Positions 2,322 through 48,018 of a stretch of 64,000 nt of DNA are shown piece by piece. Under the pieces are notes generated by a model that was not told the DNA's origin, did no database searches, and saw only the letters and a program-made list of their open reading frames with translations. Numbering within the stretch: position 1 is the stretch's first letter; every line of letters begins with the position of its first letter. The stretch comes from Mobula hypostoma (taxonomy: Eukaryota), in contig NC_086107.1 in NCBI RefSeq assembly GCF_963921235.1, forward strand, positions 99,202,001-99,266,000, read 5' to 3'. Position numbers and translations under genes: made by a program.

Positions 2322-2820
2322 TAAGCTGTTCACTCCTCATCCCAGGTTCCTGGGTGGTGAGGAGGGGGTCCATGTGCATGTCAGTCTTTTTACCTTCTCT
2401 GACCCCTCCTGGAAAGACCACACTGAAGGCCACAGGAAGCCCTCACCTGGGACAGCCCCTGCAGCCTAGAGCAGCTTTCTGAAACAGAAGGCAGTCTCTC
2501 CGATCCAGTTGTGTGCCAGACCGTCAGCTGGGCTGGGAGGAAGGGAGAATGCACAATACAATACGTTTATTGAGCCGGCTGCAAGCAGTGTATAAATAGC
2601 TGGGAGCATAAAAAGCGTGGTTCAGAGATAGACACGGCCCAGATTTGCGTCCCCATGGAACTGGACTAGATCAGCACAGCAATTATTCACTGTTACGTGC
2701 TCCAGTTCAAGGCAAAACAAAGAGACAGGGCATCGGGGGGGGGGGGGGAGAACAGGCTGCGGAGCCAATTGGCTGGATTCCGTGATACATCCCAGAGATA
2801 CGTAGAGACAGACCGATCTG

Positions 2821-3745
2821 CACCAGTCCTGTACCCATGAATTCTAAACCCCAGACCCATCCCCACCAGTCCTGTACCCATGAATTCTAAACCCCAGACC
2901 CATCCCCACCAGTCCTGTACCCATGAATTCTAAACCCCAGACCCATCCCCACCAGTACTGTACCCATGAATTCTAAACCCCAGACCCATCCCCACCAGTC
3001 CTGTACCCATGAATTCTAAACCCCAGACCCATCCCCACCAGTACTGTACCCATGAACTCTAAACCCCAGGCCCATCCCCACCAGTACTGTACCCATGAAC
3101 TCTAAACCCCAGGCCCATCCCCACCAGTACTGTACCCATGAATTCTAAACCCCAGACCCATCCACACCAGTACTGTACCCATGAATTCTAAACCCCAGAC
3201 CCATCCACACCAGTACTGTACCCATGGATTCTAAACCCCAGACCCATCCCCACCAGTACTGTACCCATGGATTCTAAACCCCAGACCCATCCACACCAGT
3301 ACTGTACCCATGGATTCTAAACCCCAGACCCATCCCCACCAGTACTGTACCCATGAATTCTAAACCCCAGACCCATCCCCACCAGTACTGTACCCATGAA
3401 TTCTAAACCCCAGACCCATCCACACCAGTACTGTACCCATGGATTCTAAACCCCAGACCCATCCCCACCAGTACTGTACCCATGAATTCTAAACCCCAGA
3501 CCCATCCACACCAGTACTGTACCCATGGATTCTAAACCCCAGACCCATCCACACCAGTAATGTACCCATGGATTCTGAATCCTAGACCCATCCCCACCAG
3601 TAATGTACCCATGGATTCTGAATCCTAGACCAAACCCCACCAGTAATGTACCCCAGTGTTATACAGTGACAGACACATCCATACCAGTACTGTACCCCAG
3701 TGTTGTACAGTGACAGATCCATACATGCTAGTACTGTACCCATTG
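2821..3745. repeat. 43-bp minisatellite, about 19 copies plus 2 degenerate
   Basis: Unit CACCAGTACTGTACCCATGAATTCTAAACCCCAGACCCATCCC; period 43 (2821, 2864, ...). Confidence 0.95.
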
Positions 3746-3864
3746 TTCGACAGTTAGGGGTCCTCCTGCACTGATACAGTTCCCTGTCTTTATGCAGAGA
3801 GCACCTCCCAAACCCATGACCTTGATCTCTAGAAACCTCAGGCACACAGGAACACCATCACCTA

Positions 3865-3948
3865 GTGCAGCGGTCCCAACCTGGGGTCTGCAGACCCCTC
3901 ACCTCATGGTTGGTGTCCATGGCATAAAAAAAGGTTGGGAACCCCTGC
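3865..3948. mobile_element. Short hAT/Charlie-like MITE; a second copy at about 53698-53770
   Basis: Imperfect inverted termini CAGCGGTCCCAACCT ... AGGTTGGGAACCCCTG. Confidence 0.6.
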
Positions 3949-3994
3949 TTTAAAGGTTCCCGTCCACGGGGCCCACCATCGTGACTGCGGAACA

Positions 3995-4310
3995 ACTGTG
4001 CGGAACTCGCCAATTTCAGCAGCTTCGCTACCTACTTCCACCTCATCACCAAACTGACCTGGTCACTGCTCTTCCCTTTCCTGATCTCTCTGTCTCCATC
4101 TAAGGAGATGGAGTACCCAGTGTCATTTCCTACAAACACACTGACTCCAACCACTCCCTGGACTGCTCCTCCTCCCACCCTGGCTCTTGTAAGGTTGCCA
4201 TTCTCGTAAAGCAGTCCAGACGAAGGGTCTCAACTGAAACGTGGGCTGTCCATTTCCCCCCACAGCTGCTCCCGACCCGCTGGGTTCCTCCAGCAGTTTG
4301 CTTTCTAGTT
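3995..4310 (+). mobile_element. Penelope-like element fragment (RT thumb region joined to pLTR)
   Basis: Degenerate translation ELANFSSFATYFHL..KLTWS..LPF.DLSVSI..SYKHTDS..SLDCSSSHP resembles the PLE RT C-terminal region. It is followed by a degenerate hammerhead-type core at 4212-4248. Confidence 0.65.
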
Positions 4311-4311
4311 T

Positions 4312-4555
4312 TGTTTGGATCTGTGGAATTCTCTGCCCAATGAAGCAGTGGGAGCTACCTCAGTAAGTATATTTAAGACAAGGTTGGATAGATTTTTGCA
4401 TAGTAGGGGAATTAGGGTTATGGGGAAAAGGCAGGTAGATGGAGATGAGTCCATGGCCAGATCAGTCATGATCTTATTGAATGGTGGAGCAGGCTTGACA
4501 GGGCAGATGGCCGACTCCTGCTCCTATTTCTTATCTTCTCATGTTACATATATAA
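4312..4555 (+). mobile_element. CR1 LINE 3' end
   Basis: LWNSLPNEAVGATSVSIFKTRLDRFL, the typical CR1 ORF2 C-terminus, followed by a 3' UTR and TCTTAT-type tail. Confidence 0.8.
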
Positions 4556-5054
4556 CCTGTCCTCATGGTCGATGGGTTAAGTTCCAGGAAGCCTCTCCCC
4601 AGCAGGGCTGTGGGAGCACCTTCCCTGGAAGAACCACAAAGGTTTCCGAAGGTAGCTCACCATCACCTTCTGATTGTAAAGGATGGACAATAAACACTGG
4701 CCATCCCAGTGATACCAGGTTCCAAAAAAATAGACAACCAAAGTAAGAAAAAGTCCTACAGAGTTGTATATGTCCCAGCAAGTCAATATGAGTTTATTGT
4801 CATGTGCATATGTACAGGTACAATGGAAGATTTCCTTGCATCAGCATCACAGGCGAATGGGTATAGACACCACACAGACTTTAATCATACAAGATAGTGA
4901 GGAAAAAGACTGCATGGCAAGACAGTCGTGCAAAATTACAACTAGAGACACGTCTGTAATAGTGCCAGAGGTGGTCCGTAGTTTTCTGCTGCTGAGGTAA
5001 GTTTTGGGCGGTTCAAGATCCTGGTGGCTTTGTAAATAGCCGTCCCTGAACCTG

Positions 5055-5610
5055 GAGGACACACACAAAATGCTGGAGGAACTCAACAGGCCAGGCAGCA
5101 TCTATGGAAAAGAGTAAACAGTCAACGGTTTGGGCCAAGACCCTTCATTAGGACCGGGGGGAGAAAAGATGAGGAGTAACGTTAAAAGGTAGGGGGAGGG
5201 GAGGGAGAAACACAAGTTGGGAGGTGAAACCGGGAGGGGGAGGGGTGAAGTAAAGAGCGGGGAAGTTGATTGGTGAAAGAGATAAGGGGCTGGAGAAGGG
5301 GGACATCTGATAAGGAGAGGACAGAAGGCCATGGAAGAAGGAAAAGGGGAGGAGGAGCACCAGAGGGAGGCAATGGACAGGTAAGGAGATAAGGTGAGAG
5401 AGGGAAAGGGGAATGGGAATGGTGAAGTGGGGAGGGGGGATTTACCGGAAATTTGAGAAATCGATGTCCATGCTATCGGGTTGGAGGCTACCCAGACCTG
5501 AGTGTGGCCTCATCGTGATAGTAGTGGAGGCCATGGATTGACATATCGAATGGGAAGTGGAATTATAATGAGTGGCCACTGGGAGATCCTGCTTCTTCTG
5601 GTGGACAGAA
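5055..5610 (-). mobile_element. Penelope-like element 3' end and pLTR
   Basis: DLPVATHYNSTSHS ... LGSLQPDSMDIDFSNFR (end of the GIY-YIG domain), pyrimidine-rich UTR and a degenerate hammerhead core at about 5118-5157. Confidence 0.75.
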
Positions 5611-5642
5611 CTTCTGTACCTCCTGCCTGATGGTACCAGCGA

Positions 5643-5778
5643 CCCGGATGGCGGGAATTCTTCAGCGAGAAGAGTCCATGGCCCGGATAGAGGGAATTCT
5701 TCAGCAAGAACAGTCCATGACCCAGATGGTGGGAATTCTTCAGCGAGAAGAGTCCATGGCCCGGATACAGGGAACTCT
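5643..5778. repeat. 39-bp tandem repeat, about 3.5 copies
   Basis: GGGAATTCTTCAGCGAGAAGAGTCCATGGCCCGGATA recurring at 5653, 5692, 5731 and 5770. Confidence 0.9.
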
Positions 5779-6134
5779 TGATGATAGTTGTCACTTCTAG
5801 AGTCAGTGTCCTCTGTAAGTTCTATTATCGAGGCGTGGGGAAGGGTTGCGTCCATGATGGATCAGGCTGTGTCCACCACTCTTTGTGTTCTTGTGTATTC
5901 GAATTGCCACACCAGGCCATGATTCCAGCAGTTAGGACACTTACTCCAGTAGATCTGGAGAAATTTGTTAGCATATTTGGTGATATGCCAAATCCCTTTC
6001 AGCTTCTAAGAAAGTACCTAGAGGCACTGACCCACCTTCTCTGTGAGGGTAAGGAAATTGAATTGAAGGTAGCAGTAATCCACCGGGAAACATAAAACTG
6101 GACTGCAAAACTTTCCACAGACATTTACAAAGTA

Positions 6135-6365
6135 AAGCATTGGTTAGCACAACGCTTTACATTACAGGCGACTGTGGTTCAATTCCTGCCGCTGTCTGTA
6201 AGGAGTTTGTACGTTCTCCCCGTGACCGTGTGGGTTTCCTCCAGGTGCTCTGGTTTCCTCCCACAGTCCAAAGACGTACCGGTTGGTAAGTTAATTGGTC
6301 ATATTAGGCTAGGATTTAATAGGGGGTTGCTGGGTGACCAGAGACCTAGTCCACACTGGATTTCA
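6135..6365 (+). mobile_element. V-SINE (HE1-like); other copies at about 16390-16630 (-), 25125-25330 (+), 44430-44700 (-), 55690-55905 (-) and 56250-56510 (-)
   Basis: B-box-like GTTCAATTCC followed by the V-domain GGAGTTTGTACGTTCTCCCCGTGACC..GTGGGTTTCCTCC..GTGCTCTGGTTTCCTCCCACAGTCCAAAGAC. Confidence 0.75.
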
Positions 6366-6700
6366 ATCTATCAATCAATCAATCAATCAATAGATAGACA
6401 GAGATATAGATAGGTAATTAATAAGTAAATAGATAGAAAGATAGATACAGTGTGTGTATATATATATATATATATCAATAACTAAATGGATAACTAGATA
6501 GATAAATAAACACAGAAAGATAGATAGATAAATAAGCAGATAGATAGATAGAAAGACAGGCAGATAGATAGATGGAAAGACAGATAGACAGATAAATAAA
6601 CAGTTAGATAGCTAAACAGATAGATAGAAAGACAGACAGATAGATGGATAGACAGGTAGACAGATAGATAGATAAATAAATGGATGAATGAATGAATGGA
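6363..6700. repeat. Compound (TCAA)n / (GATA)n / (TA)n microsatellite
   Basis: Directly visible. Confidence 0.9.
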
Positions 6701-44040: not shown

Positions 44041-45835
44041 TAATCCTTTAATAATTTTGTATCATCCTTTCAAGCAGTGAGTTCTGAGACCCCCATTTTA
44101 TCTCCCCTCAATCCGCCTATCTATTACTTTCTCCTACCCCCTGGTTTATGGTCACACAATTATGTGAAATGCATCCTTCACGTATACTCTGAGATTCTTC
44201 TCAATTTTATTTAGCCTCCTCTGTTCCATGTAAAATAACCCAAGCTTATCCAATTTCATAGCTAAAATTACATCCTAATAAATCTCCTGTACACTCTGTA
44301 TCATGCAAGTGCACCTGTCCTATAATGTGCTGACTAGAATAGAGTCAGAGTTGTACTGTGCAGAAATAAGCCCTTTGGCTCACTATATATGTGCCTGCCA
44401 TTCTGCTTGCTTGTTTAGCTACTTATTTATTTATTTCGCGATGCAGCCCAGAGTAAGTCCTTCAAGCCATGCCACTCCAGTAACCCAACAATAAAATTAT
44501 GGGACAATTTTATAATGACCAGTTAACCTACCCATACGTCTTTGGACTGTGGGAGGAAGCTGGAGCACCCAGGGAAAACCAAAGCATTCCACAGGGAGGA
44601 TGTACAGCGACTACTTACAGAACAGTGCCGGAATTGAACTCTGAACACTGGAACGTGCTGAGCTGTAATAGCATCGTGCTAACCACTAAGCCACCATGGC
44701 TAATCTATATTAATTGTCAATTTAGGTTATTGTCTAGATGCTTAAATGTTGTGAGAGTACCTGCTTCTTCCATCAGATTCAAGTTCATTTATTTATCACA
44801 TATACATCCAAATGTGCAGTGAAATACTTGTGTTAACAATCAGCACAACACAACGATATGTGGAGGGGCAGCCCGCAAGTGTTGCCACACATTCTGATGC
44901 CAACATAGCATGCCCTCAACATTCAGCAAATCAACAAAACCAACAGTAACAAAACAAAATACAACAGCTGGACAAGTCCCTTTCACACTCTGCCATCCAC
45001 TCACAGGGCTCCAGCCACTAGACAGGCCATCTATGGGCCTCCAACCTTCATCTCCTGGCCTGGACTCACAGACATTGAACGCGCTACCCAGGTGCTTTGA
45101 GCTTTAGCTTCAGCCTCCAGTTTCGACCCCAGACCTCACTGATCATGGGAACTTGACCTCTGGACTTGCATGGACCTCTGATGCTGGGGCTCATTGACAT
45201 GGACCTCTGACCCCAGAATTCATTGACCTGGAGGGATCACCAGTGCTTGTTCTTGGGGCCTCCCAATCACGGTCCTTGGCCACATAGTTCACTATTCTTT
45301 GCCCTTGGCGCTTGCCGACCCAGCTCCCAGGGATCACTGGACTTAGACCACAGAGTGCCCCCAACCTAGAATCCACCCATCAGCTCCTACCCTTAACTGC
45401 CCCGACCTCTAATGCCGCCTTGTCCCTATCTTTAAACCCTAATCTGGCCCCTAAATTTATGCACGATGGACATCGCAGCCTGGCACCGCCTTGAAAATCA
45501 CCTAGGACACTGCAACAAGCTCCTGAAACCACTTTCTTTCATGATGGTTAAGTGCAAATTCAGCACCCTGATCTGGTTTGGTGCTCTATTAGAATCAGAA
45601 GACTAGATCTGGAATCGTGTTAAATCTCAGTCCTTCATACTTCAACCCTGTAATCCGTAATCAATATTGTAAGCAGTCCTTCCAATAACTTCAAGAAAAG
45701 TATAGATGTAGAGAGCAAGACTACCGCAGTGGTGCATGACTTTTTTCGGGGAAAAGTTTTATTGACAAGCAAAACACTTAAATGCCATTGTCATGGCGAC
45801 TGCTATTCTGACTTCAGTGTTGTTCAGTTAAATAG

Positions 45836-47007
45836 TTGCACGCAACAGCACAGTCGTCTGCGTACTGCAGCTCCAGGAACCACTCTCTACGGAATTTGGT
45901 GGTTGCGTGGAGCCTCCTGATGTCAAAGAGGTTGCCATTTATTCTGATGTCCACTGCCACACTGCTGCTGTCTTCAATCTCGTTGTGGAGAAGCTTGGTA
46001 ACACACAAGAGGAAGATGTTAAAGAGCACTGGCGCTAGCACACACCCTTTGCATTCAAGGAAGGGCTCGGACTCTTGACCTCCTATGGTTACCCGAGCAG
46101 TCATCCCATCGTGAAAAAGGCGGAAGATGTTAAAAAATTTATTGCGATAGCCAAACCTGAGGAGGACATCCCATAAGAGCTCTCCTTGCACAGTGTTGAA
46201 TGCTTTGGAGAGGTCGACAAAGGCCATAAACAGGACCTGATGTTGCTCCCTGCACTTTTCCTGACGCTGCCGGGCTGTGAAGGTCGTGTCGATTGTGCTC
46301 CTGTTCTTCCTAAATCCACACTGTGATTCAGGCAGCATTGACTTGATGATGTTGCTGATGCGTCTCTGAAGCATCACCTTAGCCAGGACCTTTCCAGCAA
46401 CAGAAAGCTGTGAAGCTTGGGTAACCTACAGCCGTCACATCAAGTCCTTGGAGCACTTCCACATAATATGCCTCCAGCGCATTCTGGGAATTACCTGGCA
46501 TGAGTGGGTGCCTCATACTGAGATACTTGTAAAGACCCAACTGCAGGAGTATTGAGGCCATGATCACCCAGTGTCAGCTGCAGTGACTGGGGCACGTGAT
46601 AAGGATGCTCCCATGTCGGCTACCCTGCAGAGTGTTATGCGGCCAGCTACATCGTGATTGACGCTCAGCTGGAGGGCCGAAGAAGCGCTATAAGGATCAG
46701 ATGAAGAATGCTTCAAGGAAGTGTAAGATCAGACCCGAGGACTTGGAGGAGGTTGCTGCTGACCGTACCACTTGGCGACAGCTGTGTAGGGACGGGGTTC
46801 ATATTCTGGAGATGGAAAGAACAACCAGAAGACAGCAGAAGAGAGCCAGGAGAAATGCAGCCATGGTTGCCACCACTACCACATATACATGTCCCACCTG
46901 CAATAGATCTTGTGGGTCCAGGATGGGACTGTATAGTCATCAAAGATCTCACCGTTAAAGGAGTGGACGTCGTCATCAGATTTCGATGGACAACCGAAGA
47001 GAGAGAG
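45836..47007 (+). mobile_element. RTE-clade LINE, 5'-truncated with 5' inversion
   Basis: 11-bp TSD CAGTTAAATAG (45825-45835 and 47008-47018). 45836-46407 on the - strand encodes RT (LPESQCGFRKNRST, FVDLSKAF, GCVLAPVLFNIF, YADD). 46406-46958 on the + strand encodes the C-terminus (SCEAWVTYSRH ... CPTCNRSCGSRMGLYSHQRSH). (GA)n tail. Confidence 0.9.
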
Positions 47008-47281
47008 CAGTTAAATAGAGATAATACATTTTATTTGAGAAATCTGAAAGCTAAAAGGATGTCTGGTTAGTCATTGACTTTTAATTTTGATTAATTTTAA
47101 TTTTTGATTTTGTTTTAATGTGACTGTAAGCACCTTTCAGAGATATTCAAAGATTTCTGGCAGCTGGTTTTGCCTGGGGGTGTCTGTGTGTGTGATTTTA
47201 CCAGCTATCAAACTGGTAAAAGGCCACACACCTTCCTGCACTATATTCCATCTGCCACTTCTTTGCTCTTTCTTCTAATTT

Positions 47282-48018
47282 CAATAGGTTCATTTAATGT
47301 CAGGGAAATGTATACAATATACATCCTGAAATTCTTTTTCTTCACAAACGTCCACGAAAACAGGGGAGTGCCCCAAAGAATGAATGACAGTTAAACGTTA
47401 GAACCCCAAAGCTCCCAGCTAAAAAGCACCGAGCACTCAAGGATGCATCAAAGCATCAATAAAGACACAGACTTGCAGTACCCCAAAGACTACTCATTCA
47501 CCCAGTAATTCGACATTCTACGGGCTCTCTCTCTCCCTAAGGGAAAAAGAGGTGTCCCCATGTCATAGCAGGAGGGGAGACATAACAAACAACTCGCAGA
47601 TGTATGATGTTAAAAGTCTGTTGTGTCGCTTTTTCCTAGTTCTGCATCCAGAGAGTCGGCTCCAGAAAGGCTCAGGTCTCTGGGCTCGCAGCCTACGGCA
47701 GCTAACTTGCTGCTCCTGATGTTCCATGTTCTCATGCACGCCTCAGGCAGGGGCACCGGCCTAGAATCAGCCCATCTCCAGAGCCATGAAAATCCGGCAC
47801 CCTGAAGGCGCACCAGCCTTCCAGGCCGGGTCCTTGGGATATCAAAAAGCGGCCAGTCATGAGGCTCTGAGAGCAGTTCCCATTCCCACAAAGAACTGAA
47901 GTCAGAGTGTAACTCCAAGTCAGGGTCTTCAAAAGAACCTTGAAAAGAAAAAAAAGAGATATCAAATATAGAAATGGAGCTGTTTCTGAGGATGCAAGCA
48001 AGGGAGTCGCCGTTTTAG
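47282..48018 (-). mobile_element. Unclassified non-coding insertion within a CR1
   Basis: Flanked by CTTCTAATTT (47272-47281) and CTCCTAATTT (48019-48028); CR1 sequence is continuous across it. Confidence 0.65.

Follow-up and report, generated by a model that had tools for sequence, protein, structure and literature searches.

A 5'-inverted copy of an RTE-like LINE in Mobula hypostoma has the geometry of twin priming

Inversions at the 5' end are used as a hallmark of activity of L1, a long interspersed nuclear element (LINE), and they account for most small inversions in human genomes. Here we describe a copy of an RTE-like LINE, inverted in its reverse-transcriptase half, that lies in a stretch of 64,000 nucleotides from Mobula hypostoma (RefSeq assembly GCF_963921235.1, contig NC_086107.1, positions 99,202,001 to 99,266,000 of the forward strand). 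We refer to this whole stretch as the window and number its positions from 1. The best explanation of the copy, to which we assign a probability of about 0.8, is a single retrotransposition event in which both nicked strands of the target primed reverse transcription, that is, twin priming.

The twin-priming model for 5'-inverted L1 copies was proposed by Ostertag and Kazazian (2001), as described in PMC2912911 and PMC12016303; what we take from these and the other papers cited by accession refers to excerpts of them. About 31% of the species-specific L1 insertions of human and chimpanzee are 5'-inverted, and among the inverted ones 4.6% are without microhomology at the repeat and 3.9% carry extra bases (PMC2912911). 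A long-read study puts the inverted share of L1 insertions at 18-22% (PMC12016303). In cell culture, hardly any 5' inversions were obtained except from human L1 in human cells, which prompted the view that features of L1 and of the host are required, and the authors tied inversion to overhangs of 10-20 nucleotides (nt) (PMC4245944). In the excerpted part of the same study, the L2-clade element ZfL2-1, which makes 5-bp repeats, gave no 5' inversion (PMC4245944). Among the titles listed in full-text searches of the available library on twin priming, alone and in combination with RTE and non-long-terminal-repeat elements, none announced a genomic case outside L1. As for the RTE clade, RTE-1 has an open reading frame (ORF) of 1,066 amino acids, and members of the clade combine an endonuclease, a reverse transcriptase (RT), a short 3' untranslated region (UTR) and AT-rich tandem repeats (PMC1291365).

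The initial annotation, made from the letters of the window, had read the locus as a single insertion bounded by an exact 11-bp target-site duplication (TSD), with a sense 3' half and an inverted RT half. The 11-mer, CAGTTAAATAG, occurs at just two sites in the window (Table 1), where chance would give 0.04 and where two occurrences were reached in none of 100 shuffles, which bears out the annotated TSD. As a null for the repeat itself, the ends of 34 other copies of the family were cross-paired; an exact repeat of at least 10 nt appeared in 16 of 1,122 wrong pairs, nearly throughout as microsatellite. The two copies of the 11-mer enclose 1,172 bp, all from one abundant LINE family except for odd bases at the left edge, and a single TSD around the whole composite is what twin priming predicts.

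This arrangement also bears on the idea that two independent insertions of opposite orientation lie here next to or within each other. Nested and head-to-head LINE copies are common, and another inverted copy of this family, at locus L075, has itself received a later nested insertion of 2 kb. Against this, the 11-mer bounds the composite and neither piece singly: positions 46395-46405, left of the sense piece, differ from it, and no second repeat pair around one piece was seen, nor a relative with one piece. A contig from public run X15 misses both pieces together. Moreover, the inverted piece has neither a 3' end nor a tail, and so it cannot be a target-primed insertion in its own right. We see only a very slight chance that two insertions made this locus.

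Positions within the element are given here on an uninverted copy (L062, reverse strand 3300-6700), which is a real copy and not a consensus. The RT half is inverted, as had been annotated: a minus-strand frame at 45814-46425 is open for 203 amino acids, matches Pfam RVT_1 with an E value of 9.7e-17 and ends in ...LQYADDCAVACN. The inverted piece corresponds to reference positions from about 2411 down to 1833 (1833-2415 by BLAST on the uninverted copy) and to residues 596-792 of a full-length relative of 1,098 amino acids. The sense piece corresponds to reference positions 2777-3370 (2777-3376 by BLAST) and to residues 911-1098 of the same relative, and its coding part has decayed, showing in-frame stops and a change of frame. 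In the element, the inverted piece thus lies 5' of the sense piece, and its 3'-most base lies towards the left repeat. The YADD end of the inverted piece had been said to abut the left TSD, and this needs a qualification: the piece does end just past YADD beside the repeat, but the 11 bases in between are not clean family sequence, which ends at 45847 (...GACTGTGCT in sense). Of these bases, CGCAAC matches the family's CACAAG at four of six positions and the outermost five, TTGCA, are unmatched; the stretch is present in none of 46 other copies and is not complementary to the repeat.

At the other end, a normal element 3' end and a GA tail adjoin the right repeat, and 10 uninverted copies align through ...CAACCGAAG. 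The annotated orientation, 3' end and tail of the sense half therefore stand, whereas the zinc finger assigned to its C terminus rests on a weak match of 20 bits, under the Pfam cut-off of 25.2. The C2H2-like motif is also present in one uninverted copy and in a protein relative (P0002).

Table 1. Positions of the features of the inverted copy in the window, repeats of the two other inverted copies in their own locus coordinates, and family copies flanked by TG runs.
Feature	Position	Strand	Basis or remark
Left TSD, CAGTTAAATAG	45825..45835	+	exact, two occurrences in the window
Eleven bases of uncertain origin (TTGCA + CGCAAC)	45836..45846	-	between left repeat and clean family sequence
Inverted piece, RT domain to just past YADD	45847-46407	-	frame, RVT_1 match, alignment to family copies and relative
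Inversion joint, AG readable in both pieces	46406..46407	.	2-nt microhomology
Sense piece, coding part	46406..46958	+	C-terminal third of ORF; stop TAA at 46956-46958
C2H2-like zinc-finger motif, C-terminal	46884..46952	+	zf-C2H2, E 9e-4
Short 3' UTR, 41 nt, ending ...CAACCGAAG	46959..46999	+	alignment of family 3' ends
Microsatellite-like tail, (AG)4	47000..47007	+	(GAA)n or (GA)n in other copies
Right TSD, CAGTTAAATAG	47008..47018	+	exact, two occurrences in the window
10-bp repeat of L061, ATGTGCTTTC	2518-2527 and 3616-3625		
10-bp repeat of L075, GCCTGTGACT	2502-2511 and 6493-6502		
TG-flanked loci			L012, L017, L029, L034, L035, L049, L052, L058

The inverted piece is homologous to the family as far as 46407 and the sense piece from 46406 onwards, so that AG is common to both. 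The joint had been placed at about 46406-46408 with AG or AGC readable in both pieces; AG holds, and the third base, C at 46408, would be common only if the source element had the variant found in L017, one of ten aligned copies. A microhomology of 2 nt is weak taken alone. It does allow the terminal AG-3' of a top-strand complementary DNA (cDNA) to pair with the terminal CT-3' of a bottom-strand cDNA, as the model requires. Uninverted copies carry both parts in line on a single strand, about 360 nt apart, and the RT sequence noted as missing between the pieces amounts to 361 nt on the uninverted copy, or residues 793-910 (about 118 amino acids) of the relative. Among human 5'-inverted L1 copies, the two cDNA ends fall within 20 bp of each other in only 132 of 287 (PMC12016303), and the gap seen here is therefore within the known range, though not diagnostic. 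The locus thus combines one repeat pair, microhomology at the joint and an inverted piece that originates 5' of the sense piece and turns its 3'-most end to the left repeat, which is the twin-priming geometry that the annotation had recognized.

The composite is unique in the genome. A search of the 3.48-Gb assembly with the 1,172-bp query gave 1,439 candidate places, and among the 40 that were scored, the window alone matched the whole length; the others matched the 3' part or the RT part. With a 70-mer across the joint (40 scored of 878 candidates), the window alone matched positions 1-70 and the 39 others 1-42 at most. This argues that the copy is not a rearranged master element that spread.

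The same geometry recurs in the family. When the reference copy was laid on 56 other distinct loci, a small and partly biased sample, pieces on both strands were found in two, L061 and L075. L061 had been chosen on suspicion, since the genome search showed an RT fragment on the wrong strand next to a 3' part; L075, which is the same place as L038, was one of 29 loci that a search with the RT piece had yielded and that were sampled without bias. In L061 the inverted piece covers 2600 down to 2295, and the sense piece starts at 2596 and reaches the tail, an overlap of 5 nt; the joint has 1 nt of microhomology, and pairing is absent at the repeat. In L075 the inverted piece covers 1680 down to 1455, and the sense piece starts at 1599 and reaches the tail, an overlap of 82 nt, with ACCA (4 nt) shared at the joint and ACT (3 nt) between repeat and element.

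All three inverted copies have repeats of 10-11 bp, which fits the view that inversion goes with overhangs of at least 10 nt (in the excerpt of PMC4245944). Among 34 ordinary 5'-truncated copies, 25 have exact repeats of at most 6 nt, 6 have clear non-microsatellite repeats of 7-10 nt and 3 have microsatellite ones; exact-repeat detection in these ordinary copies is mostly at background, and repeats of about 10 bp occur there too.

Three priming positions, three different repeats and one geometry point to a process coupled to integration and not to later rearrangement. The latter would start from an ordinary 5'-truncated insertion running from 1833 to the tail, in which the first 580 bp or so were later inverted and the next 361 bp deleted by an error of replication or repair. 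Repair-type junctions could likewise account for the 2 nt of joint microhomology and for the odd bases found at the other breakpoint, and the copy, about 7-8% from other copies, is old enough to have had time for it. However, a breakpoint would have to fall exactly on the boundary of element and repeat in all three copies, at three element positions, and the inverted junction is already present in a contig from run X5, which carries a second organism label. We consider a later rearrangement of this kind quite unlikely.

Two further observations concern these loci. L075 carries its nested insertion, about 2 kb long and later than the element, at 3977-5975 in the sense piece, with six element bases (reference 2850-2855) on both sides. 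Elsewhere, two family fragments lie on opposite strands 2.3 kb apart (G000:C91:31901568-31901924 and G000:C91:31904236-31904849), a spacing that is unfit for simple twin priming.

The conditions that had been named as refuting the reading have not done so; one of them is a difference in divergence between the two halves. Against 32 intact copies, the inverted half has a median pairwise identity of 91.7% and the sense half one of 92.9%; among intact copies the value is 93.5% in both regions. The halves differ by 1.2, inside the intact-copy range of -2.1 to +2.4. Judged by these identities, neither half looks older than the other. As a test of whether both halves are of one subfamily, the correlation of distances in the two regions (rho -0.34 for the window, rank 30 of 33) is powerless, since the intact-copy median is itself about zero (-0.10), partly from sampling.

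These values also bear on a variant of the mechanism, in which priming was dual but on two different family RNAs, the second primed by the top-strand overhang, and the cDNAs were then joined. The 361-nt gap ties the pieces to no single molecule, the inverted half is the slightly more diverged one (91.7 against 92.9%), and the second priming was unguided by base-pairing. On the other side, the difference in divergence is within the intact-copy range, and in L061 and L075 the cDNA ends meet on element coordinates, with overlaps of 5 and 82 nt, as one RNA predicts. The product of two RNAs would in any case look identical to that of one. We regard two RNAs as improbable.

We also looked at the locus in contigs of public runs (X1, X5, X9 and X15), of which X9 has no cover of the flanks. 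One X1 contig (45300-45994) spans the left repeat into the inverted piece, and another (46978-47262) spans the tail and the right repeat without a difference. The X5 contig mentioned above (45300-45889) contains the left flank and then 54 nt of the inverted piece, so this relative also carries the insertion. In X15, from a more distant relative whose flanks differ from the window by about 4-6%, a contig of 543 letters places letters 355-542 on 45638-45823 and letters 1-177 on 47079-47257. Between the flanks it has 177 letters, as compared with 1,255 in the window, and the element is therefore absent there.

The X5 and X15 contigs both cease to align at 47079, which suggests an insertion or deletion of about 105 nt, relative to the window, in the AT-rich flank 47019-47078.

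These contigs bear equally on an assembly error at a repeat, for which the size of the family, with more than 1,400 candidate copies, gives some occasion; the contigs listed do not cross the inversion joint. Independent contigs do span both outer junctions, and a misjoin would make neither an exact repeat pair at the element ends nor two more cases with repeats of their own. An assembly error is in our judgment highly improbable.

Several points weigh against twin priming on one RNA at this locus. One concerns the priming site: complementarity between the end of the TSD and the internal priming site had been proposed as a check, and it failed, since the 3' end of CAGTTAAATAG finds at most 2 contiguous pairing nt in the family sequence near that site across 28 offsets, which is chance level. 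In the window copy the 3' end of the repeat accordingly shares no microhomology with the site of internal priming, and the junction of repeat and inverted piece contains 5-11 odd bases. The 361-nt gap exceeds that of the two other inverted family copies. Of 33 sequences in its own region, none is as diverged as the inverted half (91.7%; the next lowest is 91.9%). This half shares an 11-12-nt deletion with 8 of the 32 intact copies, but no column of the 3' region is a marker linked to this deletion subgroup, so the subfamilies of the halves are not comparable. None of the contigs listed passes over the inner joint, which is uninformative alone. The 177 letters between the flanks in X15 exceed the 72 predicted for a clean empty site, and this contig speaks for the absence of the element, not for a collapse to one 11-mer. 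Finally, the mechanism is read from its product only: observed are the structure, its uniqueness, its return in other copies of the family and its lack at the locus of a relative, and from these we infer the order of events and the enzymes.

Taken as one event of twin priming, the locus would have formed as follows. The element's endonuclease would nick the bottom strand where CAGTTAAATAG begins on the left, and the freed 3' end of that strand would prime a first cDNA on the (GA/GAA)n 3' end of the RNA, extending to reference position ~2777. The top strand would be nicked 11 nt downstream, leaving the overhang 5'-CAGTTAAATAG-3', which would prime a second cDNA inside the RNA, at a site (position ~2411-2426) that lies just 3' of the codons for YADD. 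This second cDNA would start with no detectable base-pairing, its first 5-11 bases being untemplated or miscopied, and would extend for about 570 nt to position 1833. The 3' ends of the two cDNAs could then anneal through AG/CT and be filled in. The outcome would be the order repeat, inverted RT piece, sense 3' piece, tail and repeat, in which the roughly 361 nt between the priming site and the end of the first cDNA were never joined.

The element itself had been annotated as a non-L1, non-poly(A) LINE of the RTE clade. The first part holds: no poly(A) tail is present in any of 54 family copies, whose tails are (GAA)n, (GA)n or very short, and because of this the family is not an ordinary L1. 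The clade assignment is supported in part. ORF fragments of the reference copy with Exo_endo_phos and RVT_1 domains total about 1,077 amino acids, and protein relatives have 1,007-1,141 amino acids and the same domains, the closest named ones being from teleost fishes. A single long ORF of about 1,000-1,100 amino acids, with an apurinic/apyrimidinic (AP) endonuclease followed by a reverse transcriptase, is what is expected of RTE elements, as is a 41-nt 3' UTR ending in short tandem repeats without poly(A), although here the repeats are GA-rich. The ORF and 3' end span about 3.3 kb, where a compact RTE element would measure about 3.2-3.3 kb with little 5' UTR, but one copy, L053, shares at least 730 nt more upstream with the reference copy.

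Among 120 relatives listed for the endonuclease, all eight with informative names are called 'craniofacial development protein 2' or '-like'. We take this name to come from the bovine Bcnt protein, which holds an RTE-1 endonuclease domain. Neither the Atlas search nor the search with long proteins returned a clade name for the family, and the Rex3 primers printed in PMC3728117 have no match in it. Given the architecture and the names of the endonuclease relatives, as distinct from a phylogeny, the family is probably RTE-like, with the GA-rich tail and the C2H2-like C terminus departing from a simple fit.

Three side observations touch the family. Homology between copies continues for at least 730 nt upstream of the start region of the endonuclease ORF (L062 reverse strand 2571-3524; L053:2477-3553), so that full-length elements are longer than 3.4 kb. 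Beside many fish matches, the full-length relatives P0009, P0012 and P0023, with about 40% identity, are recorded from tapeworms of fishes and amphibians (Sparganum, Spirometra). A run of (TG)5 or longer lies within 45 nt past the element 3' end in 8 of 54 copies (Table 1), which may reflect a target preference for TG microsatellites or a repeat grown from the tail.

The insertion site lies in single-copy DNA. The left flank is single-copy in a genome search (one candidate), and the right flank is single-copy as far as ~47270, with another repeat beginning at about 47270-47279. A paralogous empty site was considered as a comparison and dropped: the flanks being single-copy, there is no paralogue. 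Any effect of the insertion on the host appears to be nil, the copy being old and decayed and its surroundings unique non-coding DNA. The adjoining repeat at 47270-47500 is of very high copy number, with 1,876 search candidates and a summed contig depth of ~870,000 in X1; many contigs end in a C-run near 47411-47416 within it, and it may be an element similar to short interspersed nuclear elements.

Three independent cases in one family that is neither L1 nor poly(A)-tailed show the same product arising with a different enzyme and a different tail, and they suggest that overhang length counts for more than poly(A) or annealing. A known mechanism is thereby extended to another type of LINE, an element type new for twin priming; what is distinctive here is priming without detectable pairing and a low rate. 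We tentatively propose, as a possibility that we hold to be rather less than even, that twin priming, far from being peculiar to L1, accompanies endonuclease-type LINE integration in general as a side reaction, wherever an overhang of about 10 nt results from the second nick, and that the reverse transcriptase of this family can start internally without base-pairing, after adding or miscopying a few bases. If so, the rate of about 3%, against 20-30% in L1, would reflect how seldom a sequence-specific, 3'-end-recognizing reverse transcriptase engages an internal site, and the family would offer a natural contrast for what sets the inversion rate. On the practical side, annotators who split such copies into two opposite fragments overcount the family, and inversion callers may misread them. 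The case should be of moderate interest to transposon specialists.

Compared with the systems described before, the family resembles the RTE-clade LINEs RTE-1, BovB and Rex3, as the excerpts of PMC1291365 and PMC3728117 present them, in its one long ORF of about 1,080 amino acids with AP endonuclease and reverse transcriptase, in its mostly 5'-truncated copies with short, variable TSDs, and in its very short 3' UTR ending in tandem repeats. It differs from them in a tail that is GA-rich and not AT-rich or GATG, in the C-terminal C2H2-like motif, and in the homology that reaches at least 730 nt upstream of the ORF start region.

The inverted copies share with L1 twin priming the single TSD around an inverted 5' piece and a sense 3' piece, an inverted piece that originates 5' of the sense piece, a joint with microhomology, the occurrence of gaps as well as overlaps between cDNAs, and repeats of at least 10 nt. 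Unlike L1, the family is an RTE-like, single-ORF LINE with a (GA/GAA)n tail; overhang and priming site show no pairing in the window copy or L061 (and 3 nt in L075), with odd junction bases in the window copy; and inversions make up about 2 of 56 sampled family copies, as against 18-31% of recent L1 insertions in the excerpted studies. The closest parallel outside L1 is an insert of Nimb-2_DR obtained in the chicken cell line DT40 (Yamaguchi et al., 2014; PMC4245944, excerpt), likewise a 5' inversion of a non-L1 LINE, whose repeats peak near 12 bp where those here measure 10-11 bp. That insert is a single de novo event in cell culture and belongs to a different LINE, whereas the inversions described here are three old genomic copies of one family.

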